A stretch of 55,939 nucleotides of DNA from Deinococcales bacterium (GCA_043778225.1 JAYWGM010000002.1:1-55939); one strand, 5' to 3'. Numbered from the stretch's first letter, positions 1 to 55,939 are shown. Translations and numbers: made by a program. The notes: generated from the letters alone by a model not told the origin.

Positions 1-366
1 CTCGAGTTCGCGCCACGGACTGGCGTTGCACTCATGCTCGAGTTCAGAAATAATAATTTCGTCGCCAGCCTTAAAAAGCCTCGAGAAGGCGCTCGAAAGC
101 CGAAAAGTTAGGGCGGTAGCACTTGGACCAAGCACCACTTCGTTGGCACTGCACCCAAAAAATTCAGCAGTTTCGATTCGGGTCTGGTCGCGGATGGCGG
201 TCGAAAGTTGCGAACCAGCATACGGCATTCCGATATTGCAACTGGCAGACTCGAGAAAAGCCGTGATGCCCGCAATACAAGCCCGTGGCACCTGTGCGCC
301 AGCCGCGTTATCCAAAAAAGAAAAACCAGAAGCCAAAGCCGGGAAGTGTTGCTTAAAATTGTCCAT
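1..366 (-). CDS. Aminotransferase class V / cysteine desulfurase-like protein (N-terminal part, runs off window)
   Basis: Manual translation from ATG at 366: MDNFKQHFPAL...FLDNAAGAQVP...VVLGPSATAL...GDEIIISELEHECNASPW, typical class V PLP motifs; not in ORF track. Confidence 0.85.
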   Translation of the reverse strand, partial: MDNFKQHFPALASGFSFLDNAAGAQVPRACIAGITAFLESASCNIGMPYAGSQLSTAIRDQTRIETAEFFGCSANEVVLGPSATALTFRLSSAFSRLFKAGDEIIISELEHECNASPWRELE

Positions 367-381
367 AAACAAGTTTAACGC

Positions 382-2106
382 TTATTGGTTGCCAATACCA
401 AAAATATTTTCTGGGTCGAGATGTGCTTTTGCGCCTTTAATCCACTCGAGTCCAGCACTGGATTTCACATCCTTGACAAAGCCAGCCCTCAGTTTGCCAA
501 TCCCATGATGATGCGAAATCGAGCCGCCATGCTCGAGAATCGTTTCGCGGGCGGAATGCTCGAGAACCGCAAACTGCTCGGCTGGGTTTTTAATGCCCGT
601 TGCCAGCGTCGCAAGGTAAAAATAGACGGCTGCCCCCGTGTGATAAAGCTGGGTCACACGCCACGAGATAATCGGTTTACCGGGTAAGCCAAGGCGTTTA
701 TGTTCGCTTAATACTCGAGCCTTGACCGCTTCGCACATCGTCGGTAAGTCCGACCACGAAACACTGGTCTCAAAGGATTCTGCCATAATTCCAAAGCGCA
801 TAAAAAAATCGCGGATGTAAGCAATCGCAAAGGTTAATTGATAACCACGTTTGCCGTTTTCGCCACCAGCCCGAAAGCCATTATGCAGTTTTGCCAGTTG
901 CCCGACCCGAGCCGATTGCAGCGCCGTTTCTTGTGGTGAGCCTTCAAATAAGAGGGTGCAGGCGCACATCAGATTCGGGTCAAAACCCATCGGACCGGTA
1001 ATAATTGCCCGTTCAATTTTGGACTTGGTGGCTTTCCAGCCTAAGGTTTCTGGTTTGAGGGCTTGTCCAAATTGAAACTGAAAATTGTCCATCAGCCGCA
1101 CACTGGCTGGATAGGGCGGAAATTTAGCGAGGTCGCGCATAAAATTGTAACCGTCGGTAAAGTTTTTGAACAAGACCGAATCAAAACGCTGGACTTCGGG
1201 CATCGCAAAAATTTTGACTCGAGCGCTGGTGATAATCCCAAAATTGCCTTCCGAACCAAACGCCAAACTGCGTGGGTCTGTTCCCATGCTTTCACGCGGC
1301 ATGGCTTTACCTTCGATTAAACCCTTGGCGGTGACCATTCTTATATCCAAGACAATATCTTCAATGTTGCCATAGCGATTTTTTTTCATGCCACTCGAGC
1401 GGGTCGCAATCCAACCGCCGAGGGTACTAAATTCGTTGCTGTCTGGTTCGTGACCAATCGTAAAACCCTGTTTCTCGAGTTCGGTCTGTAAATCCGAGCC
1501 AACAATCCCAGCCTGTACATGGGCAATGCGGTTTTCTTTGTCTATCTCGAGGATTTTGTTCATGCGCCGCATATCCACCGAAATGATTGCTCGAGGGTCG
1601 TTGGATGGACAAGCCAGTGCATGACTGACATTCGAGCCTCCACCAAACGGCACAAGCAGCACGCCATGTTCATGCGCCAGTTGTACCAGTTGTTGCACCT
1701 CGAGTTCGGAAATCGGATAAACGATTAAATCCGGGACTCGAGCCAATGCGCCGTGTCGAATCGCATGGACTTCCTCGAGCGAATGCCCGTGTCCATGTCT
1801 GCGCCGAGCGGTTTCGTCTTGGCTGTAAGCAATTTCTTGCAGTGCGCTAATAAAGGCACTTGCGTCTTTGGGTGGTGCAATCGGGCTAAGACCTTTGACT
1901 TGAAATTCGGGTTGCAAGACCAGTGTTGTGTCCAGCACGCCGTTTGCCCACGAAATCAGGTGCGGCAGTCGCTTGCCCGACATTTCATAACGCGCCCCAA
2001 TCAGTTTAACCATGTCGTTCTCGAGGTCAAGTCCAGAATCGGTGTAACCCCAACCATCAAAACGTTCACCACGCGGCACAGAAGGATCGATTGCAAATTT
2101 CGTCAT
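382..2106 (-). CDS. FAD-linked oxidase, alkyldihydroxyacetone-phosphate synthase (AGPS)-like
   Basis: PFGGGSNV FAD loop, GHEPDSNEFSTLGGWIATRSSGMKKNRYGNIED, C-terminal SHHHGIG; leaderless TATACT-N7-ATG start. Confidence 0.85.
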   Translation of the reverse strand: MTKFAIDPSVPRGERFDGWGYTDSGLDLENDMVKLIGARYEMSGKRLPHLISWANGVLDTTLVLQPEFQVKGLSPIAPPKDASAFISALQEIAYSQDETARRRHGHGHSLEEVHAIRHGALARVPDLIVYPISELEVQQLVQLAHEHGVLLVPFGGGSNVSHALACPSNDPRAIISVDMRRMNKILEIDKENRIAHVQAGIVGSDLQTELEKQGFTIGHEPDSNEFSTLGGWIATRSSGMKKNRYGNIEDIVLDIRMVTAKGLIEGKAMPRESMGTDPRSLAFGSEGNFGIITSARVKIFAMPEVQRFDSVLFKNFTDGYNFMRDLAKFPPYPASVRLMDNFQFQFGQALKPETLGWKATKSKIERAIITGPMGFDPNLMCACTLLFEGSPQETALQSARVGQLAKLHNGFRAGGENGKRGYQLTFAIAYIRDFFMRFGIMAESFETSVSWSDLPTMCEAVKARVLSEHKRLGLPGKPIISWRVTQLYHTGAAVYFYLATLATGIKNPAEQFAVLEHSARETILEHGGSISHHHGIGKLRAGFVKDVKSSAGLEWIKGAKAHLDPENIFGIGNQ

Positions 2107-2142
2107 GATGTCCAGTATACGCCCACCAGACTCGAGGCGATA

Positions 2143-2224
2143 AGGCTAAATAGCTGGTGATGGCTTGGTGTGCTACGAGGCTCAAAATAGCTTGGTGATT
2201 GACGAGGCTCAAATAGCTTGGTGA
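2143..2224. repeat. Short degenerate tandem repeat
   Basis: ACGAGGCTCAAA(A)TAGCTTGGTGA at 2175 and 2202 plus a decayed copy at 2143. Confidence 0.7.
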
Positions 2225-2838
2225 ATCATGGTCTCGAGTGGCTGCATGGCTCGCAAACGATAATAGGCTTCCATCGTGCGTGGATGCACAACCCGTCCTT
2301 TACTTTGCAGATAATGCACCTTACAAGTCAGGGCTTGGTGGTATGCGCGTTCCAAATCCAGAAAAGCCAATTCACGGATGTCATCGTTGACCCCACGTCC
2401 GGGTTCGGAGACATCGGCAACATAGACACAAATCGAAAGTAAATTGCCGCTCCGTGGTCCGGTCACGTGTTCTTCGACGGCATCGAGGACATCGCGGTCG
2501 GTCATTCCCCATTGCTCGAGAATCGCTCGCCCAGCCCGACCATGAACCGCCAACGGGTGGTCAGCATCCGCCAAGGTTTCAGGCGGGGCTAAACGCAATA
2601 ATTCCAAAGCTGGTAAATCCCGTGCAACATCGTGCAGAATTCCAGCCAAATACGCCTTATCGGAGTCAAGGCTGTGCGCCATCGCAATGTCTCGAGCCAG
2701 CGCCGCCACCCGTTCGATATGAGCAAAACGCTCTGGTTTAACCATGGCTCGGACTCGAGCCGCCCAAAAAGCCACTGGCGCAGACGGTGCTACTTGCAGA
2801 AGAATAGCCAACTCAGTCACTCCTTCCCCATTTCCCAA
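2209..2838 (-). CDS. yqeK: YqeK-family HD hydrolase (Ap4A symmetrical hydrolase-like)
   Basis: RFAHIERV, AGILHDVAR, HGRAG, VYVADVSEPGR motifs; exact start uncertain. Confidence 0.85.
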   Translation of the reverse strand: MGNGEGVTELAILLQVAPSAPVAFWAARVRAMVKPERFAHIERVAALARDIAMAHSLDSDKAYLAGILHDVARDLPALELLRLAPPETLADADHPLAVHGRAGRAILEQWGMTDRDVLDAVEEHVTGPRSGNLLSICVYVADVSEPGRGVNDDIRELAFLDLERAYHQALTCKVHYLQSKGRVVHPRTMEAYYRLRAMQPLETMIHQAI

Positions 2839-2854
2839 AGAAGATTCTACCGCG

Positions 2855-2893
2855 TCGTCAGCTTTTTGTCACCCCTTTGTCAGCCATTTGTGA
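2855..2893. promoter_or_regulatory. 11-bp-period direct repeats, OmpR/PhoB-box-like
   Basis: TCGTCA, TTGTCA, TTGTCA, TTGTGA starting at 2855, 2866, 2877, 2888. Confidence 0.45.
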
Positions 2894-3038
2894 AAAAAGC
2901 GCACAAGCCACTAGGATTGGTAGTTGTGCTTTGTAAAAACACAGTCAGTAAGGTAGAGCAGTAGGGCAGAACAACCTAAGCCACTGCTCGAGAAGGTAGT
3001 TGTCTGTAAACGCGGTGCAGCCCTGACTAAAAAAATAG

Positions 3039-4496
3039 CCTTTTCAGCTTCCAAGCTCGGTCTCGAGTGCGGTCAATCCAACCAGCACCCAAAGCCCAGC
3101 TTCCTCGAGTCTCCCAATTGTTAATCCAATTACGATTACAGCACCAAATCAGGTTGCCCCGCCGATAACTGGAACGAATTCTGCCTCGAGTGTGACTGCG
3201 CCTGTTGGGACTGTGCCTGTTGGTAATCCTGTGGCGGTTAAACCGCCCTCGAGTGTTAAGCCAGTCTCGAGTAGTGCGCCGCCAAATAGAATTATCAGAC
3301 CATTTGATGGTGTTGGCTCGAGTTCTTCGGCTGGTGTAGATTGTTTTAAGGCAGTGGCAAAGTCTCTTGATTCACAAGATGCCATTTCGGCGCAACAAGC
3401 GGAGCAACAAATGGGAAATCTTGAAGCCTGTGCGCGTAAAGAAGCTCAGAATGAACTTGAGAATCGTTATCGTCAACAAGGTTTGGATGCGGCGGCAGCA
3501 AAACTCCAAGCGCAAGCTGATTTGAATGCCCTTGACGGTTATTTCCAAGCGGGTCAATTTGAACCTCGAGACCGAATTCAATTCTTAACTGGATTGGCTG
3601 TTGGACTAGCCTCGAATCAGATTACAATTCCCGAATGGCGTAAAGAACTCGCAGCAATTTGTGGGATTCGGTCTCGAGCCAGTGCTGGTGCAATTGGAAC
3701 GTGCGATGAAGCGTTTAAGAACAATGGTTTTGGAGGTCGAGCAGCCTATATGGGTGGTGGTTGTCCAACCAATTCTGGAACGGCTTTGGCTTCAAACCCA
3801 TGTGACTCTAAAGATGCTCGTTTAGCCCCTAAAAATGCAACCCTAACCGATAGGGGTGATAGAAATCATCTTGGAGATTGGTTGTTTGGTAAGGGTGGGT
3901 ATGATATGTCAAGAAATAAGATTACAGGTTCAGGCGTTGGTGGTCAGTTGGACTCGAGAACTCAAGTTGGGATTAGTAAGAATGCACAACAAGCCTTTCA
4001 TGATGTCGCTATGGCATTTGATCGTTATTGCCAAAATCTAAGAAGCCCAAATCTGAATCCAGATAGACTTGATAGTATTTCATTAACAGGTCCCGGCGCA
4101 GAAGTTGCTTTTGGATATGGTGCAAAACTGACATCACAAATAACTGTTCCAATCAATAATTTGCCAAATACCAGTTTGAGCGTTACAGGAGCAGCAAACC
4201 CATTACAAGCAACTACCTCTATAGGTCTAAGTGGTGTTTCTGTGTCTCCACCTAGTATCAACTTCGGTCTTGGACTTGCACTTTATTATGGCGGATTCAC
4301 TGCAAATTTGTCTAATAACGGTAGTAATCAAATAAATTCAGGGGCGCTTAATGGGGGACTCAGTCTTGTTTACTTTCAAGGTGGTTTTTCCATAGGTACA
4401 AAAGGTGAATTCCAAGTCCAACTTGGTGCAGGACTTGGATTGGGAGCCGCAGGAAGTTTATCAATTACACCACCTAAAGATTGTAAAAAAGGATAA
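3039..4496 (+). CDS. Orphan polymorphic-toxin cassette 1 (P/S/T stalk + pre-toxin region + Gly-rich C-terminal domain)
   Basis: Frame opens after TAG at 3036 with no convincing RBS/start; begins inside the stalk repeat shared with 5145-5412 and 10311-10527; followed directly by a small AT-rich gene. Confidence 0.7.
   Translation, partial: PFQLPSSVSSAVNPTSTQSPASSSLPIVNPITITAPNQVAPPITGTNSASSVTAPVGTVPVGNPVAVKPPSSVKPVSSSAPPNRIIRPFDGVGSSSSAGVDCFKAVAKSLDSQDAISAQQAEQQMGNLEACARKEAQNELENRYRQQGLDAAAAKLQAQADLNALDGYFQAGQFEPRDRIQFLTGLAVGLASNQITIPEWRKELAAICGIRSRASAGAIGTCDEAFKNNGFGGRAAYMGGGCPTNSGTALASNPCDSKDARLAPKNATLTDRGDRNHLGDWLFGKGGYDMSRNKITGSGVGGQLDSRTQVGISKNAQQAFHDVAMAFDRYCQNLRSPNLNPDRLDSISLTGPGAEVAFGYGAKLTSQITVPINNLPNTSLSVTGAANPLQATTSIGLSGVSVSPPSINFGLGLALYYGGFTANLSNNGSNQINSGALNGGLSLVYFQGGFSIGTKGEFQVQLGAGLGLGAAGSLSITPPKDCKKG
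3049..3285 (+). repeat. Stalk homology block, copy A
   Basis: Encodes PSSVSSAVNPTSTQSPASSSLPIVNPITITAPNQVAPP..., near-identical DNA to copies B and C. Confidence 0.9.
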
Positions 4497-4498
4497 AT

Positions 4499-4957
4499 GT
4501 GATACTTCTCTATTCAATTTTGAGCTTTTTTCATACTGCTGTTTTGCTTTATATTTCTATCAGAGTGTTTCAAGGATTTAATGAGGTAATCGATACTAAT
4601 TTGTTTGGAATTGTTTTTATTACTGTTCTTTATATTTTTACATCTTTTGCTTTTCGATTTCAAATAGCAAAAGATTCACTATTTGTAACTTTTTATGGCA
4701 TTAGAATTAATCGCATAGATATAAAAAGTGTTAAAATTGTTAAATTTTCAAATGTGTTCGAGATATTGGCAAAAAATGTTTGGAAAACCAATATACCTTT
4801 TTTGTTGATACCATTAGTTTGCGTCTCAGTTGAATATAGAGGTGGGTTTTTTCAATATGTTTTATATTTCGGACGTTTTTTCAATTCAACTCAGGTAGCA
4901 GAATTCAATAAAATCATGCTGCAAAACGATAGTGGTGAGTCCAACCTAAAACGTTAA
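4499..4957 (+). CDS. Putative membrane immunity protein for cassette 1
   Basis: 152 aa, hydrophobic helices, very AT-rich, starts 2 nt after toxin stop. Confidence 0.65.
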   Translation: MILLYSILSFFHTAVLLYISIRVFQGFNEVIDTNLFGIVFITVLYIFTSFAFRFQIAKDSLFVTFYGIRINRIDIKSVKIVKFSNVFEILAKNVWKTNIPFLLIPLVCVSVEYRGGFFQYVLYFGRFFNSTQVAEFNKIMLQNDSGESNLKR

Positions 4958-5029
4958 TAACTAGCCTACCCTCAAGTAACCAAAATACCATAACAACCAA
5001 CCCAAGCCCAGCAATCTCGAGTCCAGCCG

Positions 5030-5130
5030 CAGAGTTTTATCTTTTGGGTTCAAAAATCACGGCGATGGTTTTCCGCGTACAAAGAATCTTCGTCCCTGAT
5101 GGTTCAGGGTTTTCAAAAGATAAAACCCTG
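5030..5130. mobile_element. 101-bp MITE with 17-bp terminal inverted repeats and 10-bp target duplication
   Basis: CAGAGTTTTATCTTTTG ... CAAAAGATAAAACCCTG (1 mismatch); AGTCCAGCCG duplicated at 5020-5029 and 5131-5140. Confidence 0.85.
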
Positions 5131-7074
5131 AGTCCAGCCGCTCAGCCCATAGCCCTACCAGCCCCAGTCAACACCTTGCCAAGCTCGGTCTCGAGTGCGG
5201 TCAATCCAACCAGTACCCAAAGCCCAGCTTCCTCGAGTCTCCCAATCATCAATCCAATAACGATTACCGCCCCGAATCAGGTAGCTCCGCCGATAACTGG
5301 AACGAATTCTGCCTCGAGTGTGGTTGCGCCTGTTGGGAGTGTGCCGGTTGGTAATCCTGTGGCGGTTAAACCACCTGCGAGTGCTGTGAAACCAGTCTCG
5401 AGTAGTGCGCCACCTCGAGTGATAAAAGTCTTTGATTTCTGGGGTCCTGAAGGCAATATCTGTTCGACAGTCAAAACAACGGGTGAACTCGAGTCTTGTA
5501 CTAAAGCCAGAGATTTGCAGGATGAACGAGAAAGATTAGAAGCACAAGCTCGAGCGGGTAATTCTGACGCTCAGAAGAAATTGGCAAATAATTTGATTAG
5601 CGAAGCTAAACTTTATGCCTATCATCGAGTCGGACCACAAGCTGCGGCTGATATTGAGGTTTACCGAGCTTATATTACTGAGAATTTTGATCCTGCTAGT
5701 CAAGTTGGAATGGCTGCTACGCTGAGTTTGTGGATGCAAACAGGAGCGCCATCTGAAATTCGTTGGCGATTACAACAAACTGTTCCCGAATTGCGTAAAT
5801 ACGTCAATCAAATGCGTGAAGTGCGAAAATATGATGCTGGTGTGCGAGCCGGAACAATTCGCTACGACCCAAATGATTATGGTCGCCTTAGAAGTGGCAT
5901 TGATGGAGGTAAAGCCCAACTTGCTTTTATGCTTGGAACTGGTCTGATTGATAATTGGGATGCTTTTGGTAATGTTGACCCGTTTAGCTGGCTTGATATA
6001 TTTGATATTATCGGGGTGTTTAGCGTGGTGTTTTCACTTGCAAAACTTGGTGGTAAAGCCTTGGCGAATGGTTTACGGAGTATCTTGCGTAATGGAGCTA
6101 AAGTGGGTGGTCGAGCCATTGGTGAAACGACTTTTGGTCGTGCAGTAGCAAAAGCTGAAGCTCGAGCAGCAAGGTGTTTTGGCAATAGTTTTACTGCAAA
6201 TACCAAAGTCTGGGTAGCTCGAGCCGCTAATGACCTGACTAGCAAAGCCAAAGTCACCCTCGAGAAAACCAAAACACTTGCAAAGACAGCCTTAACTGCG
6301 GTTGCTATCTCGAGTATTGGTGTGGGTACACAAGTCTTAGCGCATAACGAACAAACTAAACTCGAGACTCCTCAAATTGTTACAGCGACCCACGAACACA
6401 TTGACCCTATCATCGTGACCTTAAAACTCGAAACGAGTGATAAGAAACTCGAGACTGTTCAAACTACGCCTGAACACCCATTCTTTGCACTTCTCGAGCC
6501 AAGTAAAACGGCTAATGGTGTTTGGGTTAATGCTGGCGAACTCGAGAATGGAAATTGGCTTAAACGAGCTAATGGCGAAACTGGCATTGTTAGAAGCGTT
6601 AGTTTTGAAGTCAAGTCTCAGAAAATGTATAACTTAACGGTTGCTCGAGACCACACTTACTTTGTGGGGGATGGGCAGTGGTTGGTACATAATTGCCCCG
6701 AGTTCTATCACGGAACAAGTGTACAGTCAGCAGGTAGACTACTCAGAGGGGCTGAACTCGATACAGCCGTAGCAAGTGCATTAAAAGCTGATGGTGCGGC
6801 TGGTTTTTACCTTGGAACAAGCTCTGATTCTGCGTGGTTTTATTATGCTGCTCGACGCGACGGAACTGTTCTGACATATAACCTTAGTGACGAAGCCTAT
6901 GCCGCTCTAACAGCATCTGGTGCGAGGCTTCAAAATATACCTGTAGGCGCAAGGTCTGCACCCGGAGCAAGTCTTGGTCAAGAATTTTTCATTCCACCAG
7001 AAGCATTTGCGCTTTTTAATCAGCTCGTTAAGTCTGGACAGATTACGATACGAGCAGCACCTTTGCCCAAATAG
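5044..7074 (+). CDS. Polymorphic-toxin cassette 2: stalk + pre-toxin region + Hint domain + ADP-ribosyltransferase-like toxin
   Basis: Hint motifs CFGNSFTANTKV, TTPEHPF, MYNLTVARDHTYFVG...WLVHN|C; C-terminal FYHGT / GFYL / QEF. Confidence 0.85.
   Translation: MGSKITAMVFRVQRIFVPDGSGFSKDKTLSPAAQPIALPAPVNTLPSSVSSAVNPTSTQSPASSSLPIINPITITAPNQVAPPITGTNSASSVVAPVGSVPVGNPVAVKPPASAVKPVSSSAPPRVIKVFDFWGPEGNICSTVKTTGELESCTKARDLQDERERLEAQARAGNSDAQKKLANNLISEAKLYAYHRVGPQAAADIEVYRAYITENFDPASQVGMAATLSLWMQTGAPSEIRWRLQQTVPELRKYVNQMREVRKYDAGVRAGTIRYDPNDYGRLRSGIDGGKAQLAFMLGTGLIDNWDAFGNVDPFSWLDIFDIIGVFSVVFSLAKLGGKALANGLRSILRNGAKVGGRAIGETTFGRAVAKAEARAARCFGNSFTANTKVWVARAANDLTSKAKVTLEKTKTLAKTALTAVAISSIGVGTQVLAHNEQTKLETPQIVTATHEHIDPIIVTLKLETSDKKLETVQTTPEHPFFALLEPSKTANGVWVNAGELENGNWLKRANGETGIVRSVSFEVKSQKMYNLTVARDHTYFVGDGQWLVHNCPEFYHGTSVQSAGRLLRGAELDTAVASALKADGAAGFYLGTSSDSAWFYYAARRDGTVLTYNLSDEAYAALTASGARLQNIPVGARSAPGASLGQEFFIPPEAFALFNQLVKSGQITIRAAPLPK
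5145..5412 (+). repeat. Stalk homology block, copy B
   Basis: QPIALPAPVNTLPSSVSSAVNPTSTQSP...VKPVSSSAPP. Confidence 0.9.
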
Positions 7075-7091
7075 CGAGTAGGAGTATTTCT

Positions 7092-7532
7092 GTGAATGAA
7101 TTAACCAAAATAGATGTAAATGATGTAAGAGCGAAGTATTTGTCCAATCCATCATTCGTTTTTCGTAGAGGCATCCCTAATCTATTTGAACTTTCGATGG
7201 CAATAGCAGAAGGGGCTTTTTATCTTGGATGTTCAAAAGTCGAAATTGAAGTATTTAAGGATTGGCAGATAGTTAAGGGAAATCACGATTGGATTTGCGA
7301 AAATCCAGTAAAATCTGAGATTTTCTTCTTCGACCACTTAGTACCCTTTCCAGAATTAGACATTAATTCTGCACATTGGGAATTTTACTTATCTGTATAC
7401 TGTGTATGTATTTTGACGGCTAAGGATGAAATAATAACGGTAATTAAGGAAAATGAGTATATTGCCCTAGAGATAAATCAGGCACTAGAAAGTGTTCCAA
7501 TTGGCTGGCGTGCTGTAGCATTTAAGCTCTAA
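7092..7532 (+). CDS. Putative immunity protein for cassette 2
   Basis: 146 aa, AGGAG RBS, AT-rich, directly downstream of toxin. Confidence 0.7.
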   Translation: MNELTKIDVNDVRAKYLSNPSFVFRRGIPNLFELSMAIAEGAFYLGCSKVEIEVFKDWQIVKGNHDWICENPVKSEIFFFDHLVPFPELDINSAHWEFYLSVYCVCILTAKDEIITVIKENEYIALEINQALESVPIGWRAVAFKL

Positions 7533-7570
7533 ATTTTTTATCTTGAGTTTAATTATGATTAAGTTACTGT

Positions 7571-8367
7571 ATGACCTAGCCAGCAAAGCCAAAGCCACCC
7601 TCGAGAAAACCAAGACTATTGCTAAAACCGCTCTGGCTGCGGTCGCTATCTCGAGTATTGCAGTGGGTACGCAAGTCCTAGCGCATAACGAACAAACCAA
7701 ACTCGAGAGTCCACAAACTGTTACGGCTACCATTAACCATACCGACCCGATTACTGTAAAACTTGTCCTCGAGACGAACACTGGCAAACTCGAGACCATA
7801 GAAGCTACTCCAGAACACCCGTTTTATGCTCTGCTCGAGCCTAAGAAGAATGCAAGCGGAATTTGGGTTAATGCTGGGGAATTACAACCCAATAATTGGT
7901 TGCGACGTGCCAATGGTGAAACTGGGATTGTTAAAAGCCTCGAGTGGTTGACTGGCACGAAGCGGATGTATAATTTGAGTGTTGCAAAAGACAATACTTT
8001 CTTCGTAGGGAATGGGCAATGGTTGGTTCACAATCAGAACCAACCAAGGTATGAAGGTCCAAAACCAACATTTTCTGTAAACGGCGCTCATGTACCCGGT
8101 CAGCCTGGATTTCGTCCGAATAAAACAATACAGCCTGCTGATGCTGCGGAAGTTTTTCGGACTGCTATTCCTGATAGCGCTACAAATCCACGGGTTTGGT
8201 GGGGAGTAAATGCTAATGGTCAGGTCTATAGGTTTAGTGTTGATAACAATGGAGTGGCTCACTTTAGTGGAATAGATGGTGTCGGTGATGGAACAAGAAA
8301 TATGTCATCTTACGCAGCAGACAGACTTCAAGAAAGGTTTCCAAATGTTGAGATTCACTGTAGATAA
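7571..8367 (+). CDS. Orphan cassette 3: N-terminally truncated Hint domain + small toxin domain
   Basis: 7571-8034 homologous to 6230-6693, ending WLVHN; lacks the Hint N-terminal block; distinct 110-aa C-terminus (…VWWG…YRFS…HFSG). Confidence 0.8.
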
Positions 8368-8878
8368 ATTAGCCAAGCATTTTGAGGTGCATTTTGAAAT
8401 CGAAACCATTCATGAAACGTGGGTTTATGGAAAATTCTTTTTTCAAATTGGCGAAAATATTATTGGCAATGAGGAAGAATCTGTTGCTCTCAATATTGCA
8501 TTTGGTTGGATAGAACAGTATCTAAAAACCAATCAATTTGAAAACGATTCCAGAATTACTGAACTTTCTACAGAAGAAGTATTTGCAACATTTTACGACC
8601 CCTTTTTTATCTATAAAGTTACAAGTTTACAACCCAAATTCCCGATAATTTCTCACCCTAATGATTATCGTTTTTACGTCTCACATCTTGGTGAATCATC
8701 TTTTAATAATTGGGCTATTTTATTTTTTGATAATACGGGTTTTCAAAGAATCCTTTGGGCTACGTTAGATTCGAGAAGTATTTCAGAGGCTTTTTTAGAA
8801 GTGAATACTTTTCAAAATGCCTTACAAAATGCTTTGAAAAAGTATCATGAAGCATTATTGCGGGTAAGACCCCCATAA
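8345..8878 (+). CDS. Immunity protein, Imm42-like
   Basis: FEVHFEI...WVYGKFFFQIG..IIG...SSFNNWAILF...RILW pattern recalled for Imm42; overlaps toxin 3' end; start inferred. Confidence 0.6.
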   Translation: MLRFTVDKLAKHFEVHFEIETIHETWVYGKFFFQIGENIIGNEEESVALNIAFGWIEQYLKTNQFENDSRITELSTEEVFATFYDPFFIYKVTSLQPKFPIISHPNDYRFYVSHLGESSFNNWAILFFDNTGFQRILWATLDSRSISEAFLEVNTFQNALQNALKKYHEALLRVRPP

Positions 8879-8907
8879 ATTTACTGCGAAACTTTTGTTT
8901 CAACTTG

Positions 8908-8931
8908 AAACCCCGCCATTTCTGACGGGGT
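8908..8931 (-). terminator. Stem-loop/terminator of the small minus-strand gene
   Basis: Minus-strand RNA ACCCCGUCA-GAAA-UGGCGGGGU-UU. Confidence 0.55.
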
Positions 8932-8954
8932 GTAGCTTCTCGAGGTTCAAATGG

Positions 8955-20063: not shown

Positions 20064-23000
20064 TTACTCGGTGCTGACACTGGCATCCACTTGTTGATTA
20101 GCCGGTACTACCATTCTAAAGTGGGCAGCTGGGTCCACCAGCAACTCCGCCACGCGCCGCGCCGCATCGGTTTGTTCGCTCGAGACCAGCGCCTTGTGGT
20201 ATTCCCCAAGCATTTCACGGATGTCGGTAACGCCGCGTTCACCAAGTTTATGAATTTTGACGTTTGCCCCTTTGGCAAGGCGACGACTGTGGGCGGTATC
20301 GTCTAAGCCCATGCTTGGTTGGTAGCGCAAATAGACCACCCCGCCAGTCATGCCGCTACAAATCCATGGACCGGGGTCGCCCAGTACCACCACCCGCCCG
20401 TTGGTCATGTATTCAAACGCAAAACCCTTGGCATTGGCTCGAGCCGCCAGCATCCCTAGCGCATCCTCGAGTGGTTTTTTGATTTCGCCACCCAAGACCA
20501 CATCTGCCCCAGATAAACGAATGCAAAAACGGCTGTCGGCGTTGCCCTGAATAAAGAATTTGCCGCCAATTGCGCCATAGCCAAAACTCTTGCCGACACT
20601 GCCATCCACCCGCACACCTTGGTCGTTTAAGCCTTTCATAACCACCACTTTGCCACCAAAACTGCCCTTGCCGACACCATCTTGTGCGCCACCATCCACC
20701 AGAATCTCGAGTTGAGCGGTGTTAAAAGCCGCCAAGCCATTGCCAGGAATACTGCCGCCGTCAAAGTAGAGTTTGGCTTTCTCGAGTTTCATGCCTTTAT
20801 CGTTTTTGCGTCTCGATAACTCGCCAGCTAAGTGCGTGCCTAAAGCGCGGTCAGCACTGGCAACCGGTCCATCTTGGTAGGTCAGCACAGATTCGCCAGC
20901 AGTGGCGGCATCCACCATCCAACTCGAGAGCATTCGGGTCATCGAGTTAAGCGGCTTACGAATCACTCGTTCGGTTTTTGGCAAGGCAAGCGGTTCGACT
21001 TCCTCCAGCAAATAGCTTAAATCAAGTTTGTCTTTACCCATAAAATGCCCAAGGTGCTGGACTTGTCCAATCATGTCCTCGAGCCGTTCGTAGCCAAGCG
21101 TAGCGACCATGGCGCGGAGTTCGGATGCCATGCCCGTAAAAAAGCGGGTCAGGTTCTCGACGGCTTTATCGAATTCTCGAGGCACAAAGCGCTTCATACC
21201 TTTGTGGTCAGCTTCCTCTTGGGTTTCGACTTGGGTCGCAATACCCACATGGCAGGTGTCCAACTGGCAACCTCGGCAGATGGTACAGCCAATCGCCGCC
21301 ATCGAAACTGTGCCAAAACCGACGCGGTTTGCGCCAAGGCAGACCATTTTGACGACATCCAGCGCCGTTTTCATGCCACCATCCACCCAAAGTTCCACAC
21401 GGTCGCGGATGCCAGCCATGACCAAAGCGCGGTGGGCGCGGCGCAAGCCAATCTCGGCTGGGAAACCCGCGTACTTGAGGGCGTGCGCCCTTGCCGCGCC
21501 AGTCCCACCCTCAAAGCCCGAGAGGGTAATGATGTCCGCCCCAGCTTTGGCAATCCCGACCGCAATTGTGCCAATGTCGGGAACAACTGGCACTTTGACA
21601 CAGACTTTGGCATAGGGGTTAATGGTTTTGAGTTCTTCGATTAACTGCGCCAAATCTTCGATGCTGTAGAGGTCGTGGTTGTTGCTTGGGCTAATCAAAT
21701 CCACGCCTTGGGTAGCATGACGCGCCAGCGCAACTTTGGCGGTCACTTTAGAACCGGGCAGATGTCCGCCTTCGCCGGGTTTTGCGCCCTGTCCAATTTT
21801 AATTTCGATAAAAGCGCTCGAGTTCAGCATTTCGCTCGAGACCCCAAAGCGCCCAGAGGCGACTTGCTGCCCGCGCCAACGGGTGTACTGACCAATCATG
21901 TCGGCAATTTCGCCACCTTCGCCATTCATCGAAACCATATCAAGGCGCTTGGCGGCTTCGGGGTATGCCCGAAAAGCGGTTTCGCCCTGTGAGCCAAAGC
22001 TCATGGCACTTATCACAAACGGCAGGCGGTGCGAACCAGCGCTGATGTCCACTTCTTCGGCAGCCCGCATTTCGTCTTCGGTGGCGGGTCCAGATAAGCC
22101 TTTGACCTCGAGCAGATTGCGTGCCGCGACTGGAAACTCGAGTTCAAGCGCCCGAATTCTGCCGGTGTAATCGGTGGCGGCAATTTCGCCGTTGGCTGCG
22201 GCAGCCGCGTGTTTATAGACTCGGGTGTTCAATCGAGCATCGCGCTCTAAGTTGCTACCGCCCAGTGTCCAACGGTGGCGGCGGTCTTGCATCGTTTTCT
22301 CGAGGTCGGTCATGCCATAACCAGCATTCTCAGAAGCCAGAAAGCTCTTGATGCCCAGTTTATCGGCTAAGTCTGGTTTGAGACCAATGGCAGCAAAAAC
22401 CCGCCCATAGCCACGAAGCTCGTGAATCCCCATGGTGGACATGACTTTTTCGACCCCTTTGGTCAGGGCAGAAATAATTTTATCGGCAGATTGCTTATCT
22501 GCCCCCGAAAAAGCCGCCAGCAGTAACCACGGCTCGACTGCATCTGCGCCTAAGCCAAGCAGCATCATGATGTCGTGGAGGTTGCGAACCGAACCACTCG
22601 AGACAATCAGACTGGTTTGGCGGCGGTAAGCAATGCCATCGGAATTGAGGTTCTCGAGGGCTTTGTTGGCTTCGGCAACACATAAACTTGGGTCAAGCGG
22701 CATATGCCCAGAACGGTAGACCAGCCTGTCCTCGAGAATAATCAGTTCTGCGCCAGCGTGGGCGGCTTGCAGCACCTCGTCGCGCAGACGGTCAAGGGCT
22801 TTTTCGAGCGGTTCTGGGAAATTGTTGTCCACCCGTAACTCGAGTTTAATACGGGCAGTTTTAAGGTGACTCTCGATTTCTAAAAGCGTCATTGTGCCGT
22901 GTTTGGCAGCCGTTTCCGAATCGAGTGGAATAACGGGCGTGATTAACTCACAGATTTTCCCAGCAAATTTACCGTTGGGCAAAGCACGTTTACCCAAGAC

Positions 23001-24626
23001 CACGCGGGTGCTGAATTGTTCGATTTCACGCTCGCGGTCGATGGCGGGGTTGGTCACGACCGCCACGGTTTCTTTTAAGAATTCTGCCAAGTTGGGTTTG
23101 GGGTCGCGCAGAGCCGCAATCGGACCATCAAAACCAAGGCTCGAGATCGGTTCGTTGCCTTTTTCGGCTAAGGATTTGACATATTCTTCGTCCCATTTTT
23201 CCCAACCAAAAGCCGCCAAAGCGGCAGCGCTTGGCACATGAACTTCGGGGTCAAATTCTGGGACATTGCTCAGACGTTCAATCGGACCCGAAACGTGGGC
23301 TCGAGCGCCAACCACGACCGCACTGCGGTTATGAACCCGCTCGAGTAAAACGCGCTGGGCTTCAAAATGTGGCATTGGCTGGACACTATTTGGGCGGATG
23401 GTACAGAGCATTTTTTCGCCCGGTGCAAGTGGGCGTGGGTCGTTGACAAAAGCCCCCAATGGAATCACACCGCGCTCGGATGACCAAAAAAATTCTTTTT
23501 CGGATTCGCCAAACCAGAGTGGGCGCAAACCCAAAGCATCCACACTAAAAGCGCACTCGTTGCCAAAACGCATCACTAGCGCGGCAGGTCCTTGGGCGAG
23601 TGGTCCAAGCTGCTGGCGAAAACTCATGTAGGCATCTTGTAAGGCTGGGCTAAAAGTTTTGATTTCGCCCAAAACGGGCGGAAATGCCATCTCGAGACTT
23701 TCAAAAAGGCTGAGTCCTTGGTGGCAAATTAAGCCCTCGAGCAAGCGATTGAGGTCTTGGCTGTCCGAGCCGCCCGTCCTCGAGATACCCAGAAAATCGA
23801 GTTCGCGGCGCAAACGTTCAATCGTGTTGATTTCGCCGTTGTGACCAAGCAGCGTGAACGGCTGGACTTGCTCGAAGGTGGACATCGTGTTGGTGCTGTA
23901 GCGGTTATGCCCGATGGTGCAAACCGATTCAAAATCTGGGCGGCGCAGTTCTGGGTAATAACGATCTAAAATATCGGCTGCGCCACGCACCTTGTAAACA
24001 ACTGTATGCTGACTTAAAGACACCACATGAACCGGCAGGGCATCCTCGAGTTCAAGTGCTAAGTTGAAAAGGGCAGTGGCTCGAGCCGTTTCGGTCTCGC
24101 CAGCCACCACGCCAGCCACCTGGTAAAAAGCAGGTTCGGAAATCGCCGCGACTGGACCCAGCACACTGCCGTGGGTCTGACCGCGCCGCTCGAGAATTAC
24201 CCGAGTGCCAAATTTCATGGTGTTGGCACGAATGTGGTCAAGCACATCTCGAGGATTGACATTGACCGGAATAAATAAGTGCGCCACAAAAAAACCGCTT
24301 TCGTCCACGGTAGCAGCCTCTAAACCCGCCTCGAGCAACCAAGCCTTCCAGAGCTTTTTGGGAATATCGGTTTGGATACCGCAACCATCGCCTTCGCCAC
24401 GTACCTCGCCACTGCGGTGCGCCATTTGCGTCAGTGCCTCTAGCGCCCGTTTGACGTTGCCGTGACTTGGAAACCCAGTTTTACGGATTGTGCCAATTAC
24501 GCCGCAAGCATCTCGCCCGACCCCTTCGTGCAGTGCATTTGGAATCGTTTGGCGCAAACGCCTGCGCTCATGGGCGCGGTGCAGAGACTCGAGCTTGACT
24601 GGGCGCATGGCTGGTGTGAGTTTCAT
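20064..24626 (-). CDS. gltB: Glutamate synthase large subunit
   Basis: DACG glutaminase start, HNGEINT, SAMSFG, EIKIGQGAKPGEGGHLPG, CxxxxxCxxxxC; TTGACA-N18-TATGAT lies just upstream of ATG 24626. Confidence 0.95.
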   Translation of the reverse strand: MKLTPAMRPVKLESLHRAHERRRLRQTIPNALHEGVGRDACGVIGTIRKTGFPSHGNVKRALEALTQMAHRSGEVRGEGDGCGIQTDIPKKLWKAWLLEAGLEAATVDESGFFVAHLFIPVNVNPRDVLDHIRANTMKFGTRVILERRGQTHGSVLGPVAAISEPAFYQVAGVVAGETETARATALFNLALELEDALPVHVVSLSQHTVVYKVRGAADILDRYYPELRRPDFESVCTIGHNRYSTNTMSTFEQVQPFTLLGHNGEINTIERLRRELDFLGISRTGGSDSQDLNRLLEGLICHQGLSLFESLEMAFPPVLGEIKTFSPALQDAYMSFRQQLGPLAQGPAALVMRFGNECAFSVDALGLRPLWFGESEKEFFWSSERGVIPLGAFVNDPRPLAPGEKMLCTIRPNSVQPMPHFEAQRVLLERVHNRSAVVVGARAHVSGPIERLSNVPEFDPEVHVPSAAALAAFGWEKWDEEYVKSLAEKGNEPISSLGFDGPIAALRDPKPNLAEFLKETVAVVTNPAIDREREIEQFSTRVVLGKRALPNGKFAGKICELITPVIPLDSETAAKHGTMTLLEIESHLKTARIKLELRVDNNFPEPLEKALDRLRDEVLQAAHAGAELIILEDRLVYRSGHMPLDPSLCVAEANKALENLNSDGIAYRRQTSLIVSSGSVRNLHDIMMLLGLGADAVEPWLLLAAFSGADKQSADKIISALTKGVEKVMSTMGIHELRGYGRVFAAIGLKPDLADKLGIKSFLASENAGYGMTDLEKTMQDRRHRWTLGGSNLERDARLNTRVYKHAAAAANGEIAATDYTGRIRALELEFPVAARNLLEVKGLSGPATEDEMRAAEEVDISAGSHRLPFVISAMSFGSQGETAFRAYPEAAKRLDMVSMNGEGGEIADMIGQYTRWRGQQVASGRFGVSSEMLNSSAFIEIKIGQGAKPGEGGHLPGSKVTAKVALARHATQGVDLISPSNNHDLYSIEDLAQLIEELKTINPYAKVCVKVPVVPDIGTIAVGIAKAGADIITLSGFEGGTGAARAHALKYAGFPAEIGLRRAHRALVMAGIRDRVELWVDGGMKTALDVVKMVCLGANRVGFGTVSMAAIGCTICRGCQLDTCHVGIATQVETQEEADHKGMKRFVPREFDKAVENLTRFFTGMASELRAMVATLGYERLEDMIGQVQHLGHFMGKDKLDLSYLLEEVEPLALPKTERVIRKPLNSMTRMLSSWMVDAATAGESVLTYQDGPVASADRALGTHLAGELSRRKNDKGMKLEKAKLYFDGGSIPGNGLAAFNTAQLEILVDGGAQDGVGKGSFGGKVVVMKGLNDQGVRVDGSVGKSFGYGAIGGKFFIQGNADSRFCIRLSGADVVLGGEIKKPLEDALGMLAARANAKGFAFEYMTNGRVVVLGDPGPWICSGMTGGVVYLRYQPSMGLDDTAHSRRLAKGANVKIHKLGERGVTDIREMLGEYHKALVSSEQTDAARRVAELLVDPAAHFRMVVPANQQVDASVSTE

Positions 24627-24927
24627 ATGGCGCAAATCATAAATAACATTTGCTGGGATTGTCAAGAAAAAGAGAAGATTAAAGAGTGAATTTTTGGTTT
24701 ATAGAATAATTGTTATTTTTAATCTACATTTTACATAAAGAATTAAATCTCATTTTATCAAATAATAAAAACAATTGATAATATAATTGAAGATTTTTTG
24801 AATTAAAAATTTGTCTCGAGCAATGCACTGGTTTAAGCACAATCTACGTGCCAAAAATAAGCTGATGTGATAAACCCATGAGCGCTTGACCTTTGAAGCC
24901 ATACAGTTTACCGATACAATAAGCGCT

Positions 24928-36915: not shown

Positions 36916-37001
36916 GACCTGACTGTATCACTCTTGGGCAGTTCTCGAGTAGAATGCAAAAATAAGCAGTTTTGGCATTAATTACTCCCGAGGTGAAAAC
37001 C

Positions 37002-51147: not shown

Positions 51148-51171
51148 CACAAACCCTCTCGGGCGAAAAGA

Positions 51172-51200
51172 AGTGTAAACGTGTAAAGGCATTGTGTCAA
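51172..51200 (-). promoter_or_regulatory. tRNA-His promoter
   Basis: TTGACA-N17-TACACT. Confidence 0.8.
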
Positions 51201-51203
51201 GAC

Positions 51204-52400: not shown

Positions 52401-52552
52401 GACTCGAGCATAGCGCAAAAACCAACTCATGAGGTTTTCATATTTAATTGTTGTTGGCTTAAAAAACTTCTCTTGGACAGCTTCTATGATGAATCTCACA
52501 GCAAAATGCGTATTTGCGGCTAGACTGGACTGGAAATACCTAAGGAGGTCTT

Positions 52553-53503
52553 ATGAAATTGTTACATTGGCTCGCAGTTGGAACGCTCGCTTTGGCTTTG
52601 GCATCGTGTGGTGGCACACCCATTCCTGCTAAGCCTTCAATCGCTGCAAAACCCACCACCAGCAATTTAGATGGGGCAACCGCCAATGCCAAAAAAGGCA
52701 AAATTCGGGAGCAAGCCAAAGGCATCAATACCCTGATGGGTTTTGGACGCACCTTAAAAGCCACAGGTTCTTTGTCGGATGCCCTGACCCAAGCGCTGCC
52801 CGAGTTATCGCAAGGACAAATCGCGGCGACCGTCAAGGGGCTAAATCTTGCCCAACGTTCTGGTCTACAAGCCCAAGCCACCTCAGCTTGTACAGGTGGT
52901 TCATTAGCCACCCCAATCAGCAACTCCACCGATGCCGATGGCGATGGTATTCCAGTTGAAATTTTGGCTGTTTTTACCAACTGTGGTCTTGGTTCTGGTG
53001 CGTCAAATCCTATCCTGAACGGCGCAATTTATATCAAAGACGGCAACGATAACAACGCCAACAGCAGCTATGGAATTATTATTGACCTGACCATCAGCAC
53101 GGGTTCGAGTTCGTTGAAACTTGGCTTAGGTGTGGATTATACCGCCCCAGCCACACCAACTGGAGCGCATGGATTTAATTTTGTGGTGCTGTTAAAATCG
53201 GTTGAAGCTGGAGTCACTTCCGAAGTTGGCGTATCATTTAATTCGACCTTCCAACCAACGGCTGGCAGCACAAATCCATACGGCAATGGCACTTTGAATT
53301 TTACCGGAACATACTCAGAAACCGAAGGCAGCGCCTCGTATGGATTTAACTTGACCGGCACAAATCTTGGCATCGTCACCACCTGTGATGACTTTAATGC
53401 TGGAACGCTGCGGGTTGCCGATACCAACAGTTCATTTTTAATCACTTACACAGGCTGCGGTAGCGGCACATACTCTGGTGATGCCACTGGCACATTCAGT
53501 TGA
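52553..53503 (+). CDS. Lipoprotein of unknown function
   Basis: LALASC lipobox, AAGGAGG RBS, DADGDG Ca-loop-like motif, beta-rich. Confidence 0.8.
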   Translation: MKLLHWLAVGTLALALASCGGTPIPAKPSIAAKPTTSNLDGATANAKKGKIREQAKGINTLMGFGRTLKATGSLSDALTQALPELSQGQIAATVKGLNLAQRSGLQAQATSACTGGSLATPISNSTDADGDGIPVEILAVFTNCGLGSGASNPILNGAIYIKDGNDNNANSSYGIIIDLTISTGSSSLKLGLGVDYTAPATPTGAHGFNFVVLLKSVEAGVTSEVGVSFNSTFQPTAGSTNPYGNGTLNFTGTYSETEGSASYGFNLTGTNLGIVTTCDDFNAGTLRVADTNSSFLITYTGCGSGTYSGDATGTFS

Positions 53504-53517
53504 ACTTAGTAAACCCG

Positions 53518-53543
53518 ATACCTCGAGTCTAGGCTCGAGGTAT
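53518..53543. terminator. Stem-loop between convergent genes
   Basis: ATACCTCGAG-N6-CTCGAGGTAT. Confidence 0.6.
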
Positions 53544-54803: not shown

Positions 54804-55459
54804 CTGATTCCTAATTGGTAGCCGTTTTTGGTGCTTCTCACGACTTCAGCCCCAAGTTTTTCACGCAAGCGATAAACCGTAACTTTGACCACACTGACCG
54901 AACTGGCAGCTTCGCCCCAGACAGCATCCAAAAGTTCTTCGGCGGCAAAAACCCGCGACGGCGACAAAACCAAACGCTCGAACAGGGCATATTCTCGAGG
55001 GCTTAAATCGGTGCGGATGCCTTCTTGTAGCACCTCTTGGCGGGTTAAATCCAGACTGATTTTGCCAAATTGCAAATGGCTGGTTCTGGCTTCGGTAGGA
55101 CGGCGCAACAAGGCTCGCACTCGAGCCAGTACCTCGAGCAGCAAAAAGGGTTTGACCACATAATCGTCGCCGCCACCGTCTAAGCCCTGTACGCGGTCGG
55201 AGAGCGCATCTCGAGCGGTTAAGAACAAAATACTGCCCATAAAGCCACTGGCTCGAGCTTCTTTGGCTAAAATAAAGCCACCGTCTTCGTATTCATGCAG
55301 GCGCACATCCAAAATCATCAGGTCGGGTTCGCGCTCGAGCAGTGCCTCACGTCCAGACTCGAGGTCGTGACAAACCACAACTTCCAAGCCCTGGGCTTTT
55401 AAGGCTCGAGACAACGGCGTGGCAATGTCTATTTCGTCTTCGACCAGTAAAACCCGCAT
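54800..55459 (-). CDS. OmpR-family response regulator
   Basis: LLVEDE, ILDV, LTARD, DDYVVKPF, wHTH. Confidence 0.95.
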   Translation of the reverse strand: MRVLLVEDEIDIATPLSRALKAQGLEVVVCHDLESGREALLEREPDLMILDVRLHEYEDGGFILAKEARASGFMGSILFLTARDALSDRVQGLDGGGDDYVVKPFLLLEVLARVRALLRRPTEARTSHLQFGKISLDLTRQEVLQEGIRTDLSPREYALFERLVLSPSRVFAAEELLDAVWGEAASSVSVVKVTVYRLREKLGAEVVRSTKNGYQLGIR

Positions 55460-55460
55460 A

Positions 55461-55498
55461 GGTAACAGTATGCCTCAAAACGGTAACGATGCGGTAAC
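55461..55498. promoter_or_regulatory. OmpR-type direct repeats
   Basis: CGGTAAC at 55481 and 55492 (11-bp period), GGTAAC at 55461. Confidence 0.5.
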
Positions 55499-55514
55499 AG
55501 TGTAGAATTGCGCC

Positions 55515-55769
55515 ATGACCCAAGTTGCACTTTCAAAAACCGCTTTAGCTGCCATAGACCAAATTCGCGCCCAGCGTGGTATTCGCACAAGGGCAAAAGC
55601 GCTCGAGGTGATTGCTGTAGAAGCGGCTGGTGCGGTTGAACACCCGCTCGAGACAAAAAAATGCGAAACGCAAAAACTGTTAAGCCAGATGCTTACGAGA
55701 TTGAACGAATCGAAGAATACCTTGAACGCGAACGCAACGGCACAAACAAAACATATCCCTTGGATATAG
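55515..55769 (+). CDS. Small ribbon-helix-helix-like protein
   Basis: TQVALSKTALAAIDQIRAQRGIRTRAKALE; TAGAAT-N6-ATG. Confidence 0.6.
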   Translation: MTQVALSKTALAAIDQIRAQRGIRTRAKALEVIAVEAAGAVEHPLETKKCETQKLLSQMLTRLNESKNTLNANATAQTKHIPWI

Positions 55770-55842
55770 CGCTTCAAATGGCGGCTGAACGGCGGCAAAA
55801 ACGTGCTTGACCCAAGATTTGCACCGTATCAAATAGAACTTA

Positions 55843-55939
55843 TACCAAATTAAGGTAAAGAATCGCTTTTTGATTCTTTACCCGACCAACGGGAGTATTA
55901 ACGATACCGAATTTAACGCGAGAACGGCAGTTTGCCGTT
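55843..55939. mobile_element. Second modular small repeat (truncated by window end)
   Basis: TTA|TACCAAATT-hairpin-CCCGACCAACGGGAGT-N9-ACCG... Confidence 0.7.

Follow-up and report, generated by a model that had tools for sequence, protein, structure and literature searches.

CTCGAG as a highly iterated palindrome, akin to cyanobacterial HIP1, across an uncultured family of Deinococcales

Highly iterated palindromes (HIPs) have been described from cyanobacteria, where the octamer HIP1 (GCGATCGC) and the alternate HIPs, which are short GC-containing palindromes, occur in tens-fold excess across a lineage, in genes as well as spacers, and beyond what codon usage accounts for. To our knowledge work on HIP1 has been limited to a single phylum and has left it without an explanation for three decades. 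HIP1 sites are conserved above their surroundings and scarce in imported DNA, and the hosts are rich in restriction-modification (R-M) genes. Here we report that the hexamer CTCGAG, the XhoI site, shares these features in a stretch of 55,939 nucleotides from a Deinococcales bacterium (GCA_043778225.1, JAYWGM010000002.1; the whole stretch is called the window), in the rest of its genome and in the uncultured family to which it belongs. An earlier note on the window had likened CTCGAG to HIP1 and had proposed that a motif-generating process acts on it.

The uptake sequences of Pasteurellaceae (uptake signal sequences, USS) and Neisseriaceae (DNA uptake sequences, DUS) are likewise lineage-wide words present in all frames and in spacers; they have reshaped the proteome and are thought to build up by a drive through biased uptake and recombination. 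Sequence-specific uptake and a receptor have been demonstrated for them, and their effect on the proteome was reportedly described by Findlay and Redfield in 2009. XhoI-type R-M systems recognise the very word CTCGAG, but R-M causes avoidance whereas the family studied here shows enrichment; avoidance of restriction sites (palindromes) in prokaryotic genomes is said to have been documented by Gelfand and Koonin in 1997 and by Rocha et al. in 2001. For HIPs we draw on parts of Elhai 2015 (PMC4390886), Xu et al. 2018 (PMC5861425) and Rodriguez-Cruz et al. 2026 (PMC13756078). In the part of PMC4390886 used here, the cyanobacterial octamer HIP1 is given at 0.3-2.7/kb, as against 6.2/kb for the Deinococcales hexamer. 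No publication on an excess of CTCGAG in Deinococcales came up in our literature searches, and the papers pairing CTCGAG with "Deinococc-" dealt, in the portions available, with methylomes of other organisms.

The window is contig C2 of a metagenome-assembled genome (MAG), here G000 (4,029,277 b in 107 contigs, GC 48.7%, 89% complete), in which no 16S rRNA gene was found. Its Ffh protein is nearest to those of Deinococcales bacterium MAGs (95, 86 and 82% amino acid identity), followed by Deinococcus (~70%) and Meiothermus (64%), so that the host was correctly taken to be a non-cyanobacterium. CTCGAG occurs 357 times in the window (6.4/kb), whereas 100 dinucleotide-preserving shuffles gave 7.21 +/- 2.28 copies with a maximum of 13, none of the 100 reaching 357. 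The 18 copies counted by hand in the earlier note within positions 1-2140 were exact (1, 37, 80, 250, 445, 532, 559, 714, 1218, 1394, 1474, 1546, 1590, 1699, 1737, 1774, 2020 and 2131), and the similar density it had described for most of the window holds except in four gaps of ~1 kb (Table 1).

Genome-wide, 24,877 copies were counted in G000, or 6.2/kb and one per 161 b, with CTCGAG present on 107/107 contigs at 4.0-10.6/kb. Relative to base composition the observed/expected ratio (O/E) was 26.7, and relative to a second-order Markov model, which predicts 1,651 copies, it was ~15. CTCGAG is by far the most over-represented hexamer of the genome; a maximal-order Markov expectation (ratio 1.16) was dropped as uninformative because CTCGAG dominates the 5-mers themselves. 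The enriched 8-mers are all extensions of CTCGAG, with no dominant 8-mer extension and no palindrome extension, and the flanks are nearly random without conserved bases, indicating that the unit is the hexamer. TCGA outside CTCGAG was found at 0.74 of expectation (11,565 vs 15,717). The one-mismatch neighbours of CTCGAG range genome-wide from 0.15 to 1.41 of expectation, no transition neighbour being depleted, which indicates that only the perfect word is favoured. Note that G000 also has a second, weaker word bias, TTGGCA/TGCCAA being 4.7x and CCAA/TTGG 2.4x over-represented.

A survey of related Deinococcales, which the earlier note had suggested, was carried out on a species-representative collection (genome sizes were rounded in the densities). 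All 19 genomes of the uncultured family, from five genera, carry CTCGAG at 4.3-6.8/kb, as against 0.03-2.9/kb in 12 outgroup genomes from four other families of the same order (here f2 to f5). Family loci of GC 0.47-0.61 were all CTCGAG-rich. Among the outgroups, the three f3 genomes contain merely 128-457 copies in 4.2-4.8 Mb, and the high-GC relatives f4 and f5 have 0.9-2.9/kb, with GAGCTC common too; Deinococcus loci have 0-1 copies in ~7 kb each, which is avoidance. These counts establish CTCGAG as a HIP-like highly iterated palindrome of the whole family. One outgroup genome, G019 of f2, is intermediate, with just 62 GAGCTC but 6,990 CTCGAG in 4.5 Mb (1.55/kb, or ~5x expectation for the GC of 0.58 that a 14.7-kb sample showed); either a codon effect or the same process in weaker form could account for it.

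Frames were counted in G000 on 3,500 open reading frames (ORFs) of at least 100 aa that do not overlap, an intentionally rough gene set. CTCGAG occurred 13,056, 4,468 and 4,632 times in frames 0, 1 and 2, and 2,754 times in DNA outside ORFs, with densities of 6.19/kb in coding and 6.15/kb in non-coding DNA (O/E 26 and 29-32, respectively). The word is therefore not confined to a single reading frame, and its presence in all three frames and between genes, which the earlier note had read from the window, is borne out across the genome. Synonymous codons were then permuted within each gene, which keeps the protein sequence and the gene's codon usage; this synonymous shuffle left 2,395 copies in genes and a whole-codon shuffle 1,011, compared with 22,156 observed, so that the genome-wide excess, checked with codon-aware shuffles as had been proposed, is not explained by codon and dipeptide usage alone. 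Outside CTCGAG, 9.2% of Leu residues are encoded by CTC and 22.6% of Glu residues by GAG. Leu-Glu pairs are written CTCGAG in 69.2% of cases against 2.1% expected.

To compare the gain and retention of sites, we paired G000 genes with their reciprocal-best orthologues in 393 kb of G003, a genome of the same genus, which gave 197 pairs (71,080 aligned codons, 84.7% amino acid identity). These pairs hold 1,342 CTCGAG in G000 and 1,177 in G003, 858 of which are shared. At unchanged amino acids, 527/665, 97/172 and 172/204 sites in frames 0, 1 and 2 were retained (0.79, 0.56 and 0.84) vs ~0.41 for other hexamers, and in alignable non-coding DNA 89/150 (0.59) vs 0.34. Since CTC and GAG are seldom used and would be lost quickly under neutrality, a context-matched control is fairer; by this control, retention in 929 conserved Leu-Glu pairs was 0.81 vs 0.14 expected, and CTCGAG stood opposite a non-site encoding at 0.43 vs 0.024 expected (18x), indicating that creation and maintenance are both biased. 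The strength of the process is thereby measurable, as CTCGAG is lost ~10x more slowly, and appears ~18x more frequently, than the neutral expectation.

The one-off partners of CTCGAG in this comparison were spread over all six positions and were mostly transitions. At non-shared sites more bases had changed than in the controls (partners CTTGAG 60, CTTGAA 47, CTCGAA 41 and TTAGAA 40), owing to relaxation to AT-rich default codons; patch conversion as a multi-base event was dropped, as this relaxation accounts for the non-shared sites. A smaller set, gltB, ffh and mmsdh in six relatives (the misaligned G006 mmsdh row, at nucleotide identity 0.26, left out), gave the same picture. In the four same-genus genomes that share sites in gltB (Table 1), codon identity at unchanged amino acids was merely 0.54-0.62. 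These comparisons show that a force reading the exact double-stranded hexamer creates CTCGAG sites and protects them from loss.

The proteome is affected as well. Compared with expectation, Leu-Glu is 2.32x and Ser-Ser 1.58x in G000, and Val-Glu (0.71) and Met-Glu (0.52) are depleted. Genes for the three less conserved quartiles of proteins carry 6.5-6.7 sites/kb and those for the most conserved quartile 5.4/kb, a fall that lies wholly in frame 0. Of the five frame-0 sites in Ffh, four encode Leu-Glu where most or all Deinococcus orthologues have Leu-Lys, Val-Asp/Leu-Asp, Leu-Asp, and Leu-Thr/Leu-Val/Leu-Leu, respectively, and the frame-2 site listed in Table 1 exists because of a serine codon switch from TCN to AGY relative to the same-genus orthologues. 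The Leu-Glu excess, the Ffh substitutions and the frame-0 deficit in conserved proteins support the earlier claim that protein sequence is altered. The force acts equally in genes, in all frames, and in spacers, overriding codon preference and changing amino acids, and the motif-specific, frame-independent process postulated for CTCGAG is supported.

In G000 the coefficient of variation of the gaps was 0.998 and the variance/mean of 1-kb windows 1.006, with no periodicity but the 3-b codon one, indicating that the sites are placed independently (Poisson). HIP1 spacing, on the other hand, is quasi-periodic, a result attributed to Xu et al. 2018 in the part of PMC13756078 used here. Directly adjacent sites (spacing 6) never occur, since the junction would make the avoided word GAGCTC. 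The arrangement CTCGAGNCTCGAG, two CTCGAG with one base between them, whichever the middle base, was found 123 times in G000 vs 30-50 at neighbouring spacings.

Long gaps are in excess, with 41 empty 1-kb windows in G000 vs 8 expected, and the 14 gaps longer than 1.8 kb all have GC of 0.31-0.47. These low-GC long gaps, and likewise three of the four ~1-kb gaps of the window, which are toxin-tip and immunity cassettes, fit recently imported DNA without CTCGAG that the motif process has yet to mark. A polymorphic-toxin locus lies at window positions 3192-8878 (+) and comprises PT-HINT pretoxin proteins of 676 and 274 aa, an Imm42 immunity gene and two ORFs without a Pfam match; its low-GC toxin tips and immunity cassettes are CTCGAG-free, and its conserved parts carry CTCGAG (Table 1). 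In addition, a 551-aa ORF at 36972-38627 (+) has a weak match (7e-9, below the cut-off) to a histone H1-like DNA-binding family over residues 245-384, and is followed by a 571-aa ORF without an NCBIfam match.

Table 1. CTCGAG sites, CTCGAG-free intervals and genes of the window (positions counted from its first letter)
Feature	Position	Strand	Remarks
CTCGAG, 357 copies	1..55939	.	In genes and spacers; local sample of a genome- and family-wide highly iterated palindrome
CTCGAG-free, 1,063 b, GC 0.35	3953..5016	.	Inside the polymorphic-toxin locus; read as recent import
CTCGAG-free, 956 b, GC 0.41	6644..7600	.	C-terminal tip of the 676-aa PT-HINT pretoxin and next spacer
CTCGAG-free, 1,000 b, GC 0.38	7939..8939	.	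Tip of the 274-aa PT-HINT protein and Imm42 gene
gltB (glutamate synthase large subunit), 29 CTCGAG	20064..24665	-	18-25 of 28-29 comparable sites at the same position in four same-genus genomes
CTCGAG, ffh frame 0 (Leu-Glu)	25399..25404	+	Alignment column 1059; Leu-Glu = CTCGAG in 6/6 family sequences; Leu-Lys in 5 Deinococcus
CTCGAG, ffh frame 0 (Leu-Glu)	25444..25449	+	Column 1104; Deinococcus Val-Asp or Leu-Asp; three same-genus sequences Leu-Glu = CTGGAA
CTCGAG, ffh frame 2 (Val-Ser-Ser)	25617..25622	+	Column 1277; same-genus Val-Ser-Ser = TTCATC or TTCTTC; Deinococcus VAQ or VAR
CTCGAG, ffh frame 0 (Leu-Glu)	25906..25911	+	Column 1566; Deinococcus Leu-Val, Leu-Thr or Leu-Leu; Meiothermus Ile-Ala
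C5 cytosine DNA methyltransferase, 309 aa	28343..29272	-	PF00145, 8.5e-64; between MMSDH and ROK regulator; not family-wide
CTCGAG-free, 1,119 b, normal GC 0.48	52403..53522	.	Over a 316-aa ORF (52553-53503) without Pfam match; unlike the other gaps, not low-GC

The family genomes purge many 4- and 6-b palindromes, as in known palindrome avoidance, with a profile that tracks lineage-specific R-M turnover; what differs is the extreme depth in G000 and the behaviour of CTCGAG, which is opposite by a factor of 27. Of the 64 palindromic hexamers, 29 are below 0.05 of expectation in G000 (>20-fold depleted) and 41 below 0.2, as against only 64 of the 4,032 non-palindromic hexamers below 0.05; several palindromes are down to 1-13 copies. 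AGGCCT, GACGTC and GGGCCC are each present once in 4 Mb, GGCGCC three times, CTTAAG eight times and the reversed word GAGCTC 24 times; the degenerate GRCGYC set is nearly absent, and GGCC occurs 131 times vs 14,138 expected. GATC and CGATCG, both of which are contained in the HIP1 word GCGATCGC, are at 0.13 and 0.195 of expectation.

The avoidance profile is largely common to G000 and G003 (Spearman 0.80), with lineage-specific differences at CTTAAG (0.008 vs 0.58), ACATGT (0.010 vs 0.26) and CGATCG (0.195 vs 0), so that purging of entire hexamers has taken place inside a single genus whose members are ~84% identical in DNA. Despite these changes CTCGAG is steady at 27x in G000 and 24x in G003, as the single opposite outlier among palindromes in both. 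The depth of avoidance varies among the family genomes. This is the pattern that heavy, shifting restriction pressure would produce.

Given that a cognate methylase had been expected to co-occur with the excess, methyltransferases were searched for. At least 20 genes with methyltransferase domains are present in G000 (TaqI-like, type I, type ISP, MmeI-like, five C5, at least three PF01555 and three D12), but no methyltransferase orthologue group spanning the 19 family genomes was found; specificity is not readable from sequence. The XhoI-family endonuclease (PF04555) is present in 0/19 family genomes and only in the outgroup G021, where a genuine XhoI-type pair, the nuclease beside a PF01555 methyltransferase, was found; this methyltransferase has no orthologue in G000. 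The expected co-occurrence is thus not supported by these searches. Counterparts of DmtA and DmtC, the conserved orphan methyltransferases of HIP1, were not found in the family genomes searched. C5 methyltransferases are present in 17/18 other family genomes, with none in G010 (91% complete, 21,883 CTCGAG), and the closed genome G013 (23,515 CTCGAG) has no PF01555 enzyme. The only enzymes common to G010 and G013 are type I HsdM-like (~500 aa, 32% identity), and such enzymes recognise bipartite sites. The C5 enzyme of the window matches M.HaeIII and M.HhaI over the catalytic half only.

Two candidates for a cognate enzyme were rejected in searches at E<=1e-20, a threshold that cuts off distant homologues: a TaqI-like 650-aa enzyme, in 3/19 genomes and with PDB matches covering catalytic parts only, and a 501-aa Eco57I-type enzyme, in 2/19. 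D12 enzymes differ between genera, one being common to G013, G009, G011 and G017 (62-71% identity) with no match in G000. In G003 a MutH/Sau3AI-like gene comes after the gene for a Dam-like D12 methyltransferase (C1:27108-28231); G000 has an orthologue of the Dam-like enzyme (C101, 63% identity) and no MutH-family match. As factors, both MutH-like (1/5 genomes, beside the Dam-like enzyme) and NucS (3/5 genomes, including the CTCGAG-avoiding G020) were rejected, as neither tracks CTCGAG.

Vsr (PF03852) and Terminase_6N were each found in 0/19 family genomes. RecC was found in 0/5 genomes and PDDEXK_1 in none of the G000 proteins, and ComEC (PF03772) and DprA (PF02481) are present in 5/5. An AddB-like protein of 813 aa (ADDB_N) adjoins a RecN-like gene in G000 (C32:43476-45914, minus), with homologues in 17/18 other family genomes, in 3/3 genomes each of f2, f4 and f5, and in 0/3 of f3. 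A scan of viral contigs for three clustered CTCGAG gave at least 131 stretches, none with the family signature among the matches listed; these were mostly of GC 0.54-0.70 and contained GAGCTC and GGCC too. Taken together, the phenomenon parallels HIP1, but a parallel in mechanism is not supported, given the lack of an XhoI-family nuclease, of Vsr and of a family-wide methyltransferase orthologue, and given the Poisson spacing.

That the excess might be a by-product of codon, dipeptide or base composition, or of mobile-repeat copies, is suggested by the 59% of genic sites that lie in the Leu-Glu frame and by the densities of f4 and f5, where GAGCTC is common too. This explanation is refuted and its chance is negligible: the synonymous shuffle falls far short of the genic count, the non-coding O/E is as high as the coding one, away from the motif CTC and GAG are in the minority among their synonyms, the flanks have no conserved bases and the palindrome no extension, and the reversed word GAGCTC has 24 copies. 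Very-short-patch (VSP) repair, in which a Dcm-like m5C methyltransferase and a Vsr-type T:G endonuclease turn CTTGAG or TTCGAG into CTCGAG, has in its favour the wide occurrence of C5 enzymes and the fact that VSP repair in E. coli raises CCWGG and lowers CTAG. It is nevertheless essentially refuted and highly improbable, since Vsr is missing from all 19 genomes, the transition neighbours are not depleted (TTCGAG 1.37, CTTGAG 1.41) and, at ~1,300-1,400 copies each, could not supply 24,877 sites, VSP repair drives one position only, and G010 is rich in CTCGAG without any C5 enzyme.

Each site might instead be selected directly because it serves the chromosome, for example by binding an abundant dimeric nucleoid protein or as a Chi-like "self" signal at which end-resection would halt after the double-strand breaks that are frequent in desiccation-exposed Deinococcales, a palindrome serving both orientations and suggesting duplex recognition by a symmetric dimer; the conserved non-coding sites and the AddB-like protein beside the RecN-like gene agree with it. 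However, the Poisson spacing and equal density show no per-length requirement or saturation, no candidate binding protein was found, RecC and PDDEXK_1 were not detected in the genomes searched for them, and the excess of known Chi sites is just a few-fold, as against 27-fold here. A Chi-like reading in particular was rejected, as there is no lineage-specific helicase-nuclease, the AddB-like gene being order-wide except in f3 and thus also present in f2, f4 and f5 without the excess. We regard direct selection as unlikely. A methylation-directed repair ratchet (Elhai's HIP model), with a CTCGAG-specific methyltransferase, possibly supplied by non-orthologous enzymes, and repair of mismatches in or close to a site towards the methylated, site-bearing strand, would account for biased creation and retention at all six positions. 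In the part of Elhai 2015 used here (PMC4390886), HIP1 and the alternate HIPs are tied to methyltransferases of matching specificity; CTCGAG-specific m5C methylation occurs in Halorubrum, according to the available part of PMC8112702; and several of the methyltransferase-domain genes of G000 have no recognised partner nuclease among the neighbours scanned. Against this model, which we likewise consider improbable, stand the lack of a family-wide methyltransferase orthologue, with G010 lacking C5 and G013 lacking PF01555 enzymes and only HsdM-like ones shared, the absence from G000 of an orthologue of the XhoI-type methyltransferase of G021, and the scarcity of MutH-like and Vsr genes. The methyltransferase genes and the set of avoided palindromes change fast, while CTCGAG stays constant across five genera and, in the loci compared, across GC of 47-61%, and for this reason we do not think that the excess is a by-product of an R-M system or of one dedicated methyltransferase.

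The constancy of the word, the R-M turnover around it, the independence of the sites, the equal density in coding and non-coding DNA, the proteome effect, the word-free imports and the lack of an evident dedicated methyltransferase, Vsr or MutH suggest a weak and additive advantage of each site, or a transmission bias, that stems from a conserved core factor. The mechanism to which we tentatively lean, as a possible one, is a weak, additive, per-site molecular drive through a conserved core factor of DNA exchange (uptake or recombination) or repair. In this mechanism, CTCGAG-bearing DNA would be preferentially taken up or recombined among family members, and alleles with CTCGAG would replace alleles without it; the closest models would be the Haemophilus and Neisseria uptake sequences and the recent proposal that HIP1 enhances transformation. 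The Leu-Glu excess and the fewer frame-0 sites in conserved proteins resemble the proteome effect of uptake sequences, and competence genes are present. The presence of ComEC and DprA is weak evidence, because these genes are widespread.

Several points weigh against such a drive. Known uptake sequences are 9-12 b long, non-palindromic and at ~1/kb, unlike a palindrome of 6 b at 6/kb. Unlike for USS and DUS, no uptake receptor was identified for CTCGAG in this uncultured family, nor any other protein that reads the word. ComEC and DprA are near-universal (the control was found in 10-11/14 genomes), so that their presence proves little. Synonymous identity in the flanks, a weak test of import, was 0.567-0.579 at non-shared sites vs 0.594 at shared sites and controls, a difference of 1.5-2.7 points. 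In every test run, the patterns expected from a drive are also those expected from weak direct selection. The gene absences are limited by the 89% completeness of G000 and by the fragmentation of most family MAGs. Furthermore, different non-orthologous methyltransferases could all methylate CTCGAG, and Elhai describes m5C and m4C enzymes for CGATCG in different cyanobacteria (PMC4390886, in the part used here).

An independent and denser HIP case in Deinococcales permits comparative tests of competing models. Ideas on HIP1 centre on methyltransferases, but no such link is evident for CTCGAG, which coexists with extreme palindrome avoidance. In practical terms, the absence of CTCGAG flags imported DNA in these genomes, its abundance distorts the codon and dipeptide statistics on which gene finding and binning rely, and XhoI would cut family DNA to ~160-b fragments unless it is modified. 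A more specific form of the drive, which we find rather doubtful, is that CTCGAG is a methylation-independent "self" word, the bare hexamer being read by a conserved core uptake or recombination-repair protein. If so, CTCGAG would be the shortest and densest uptake or recombination signal known and an independent second origin of the HIP phenomenon in which methyltransferases are dispensable, and it would mark kin DNA for exchange in a lineage purged of ~30 other palindromes by restriction pressure.

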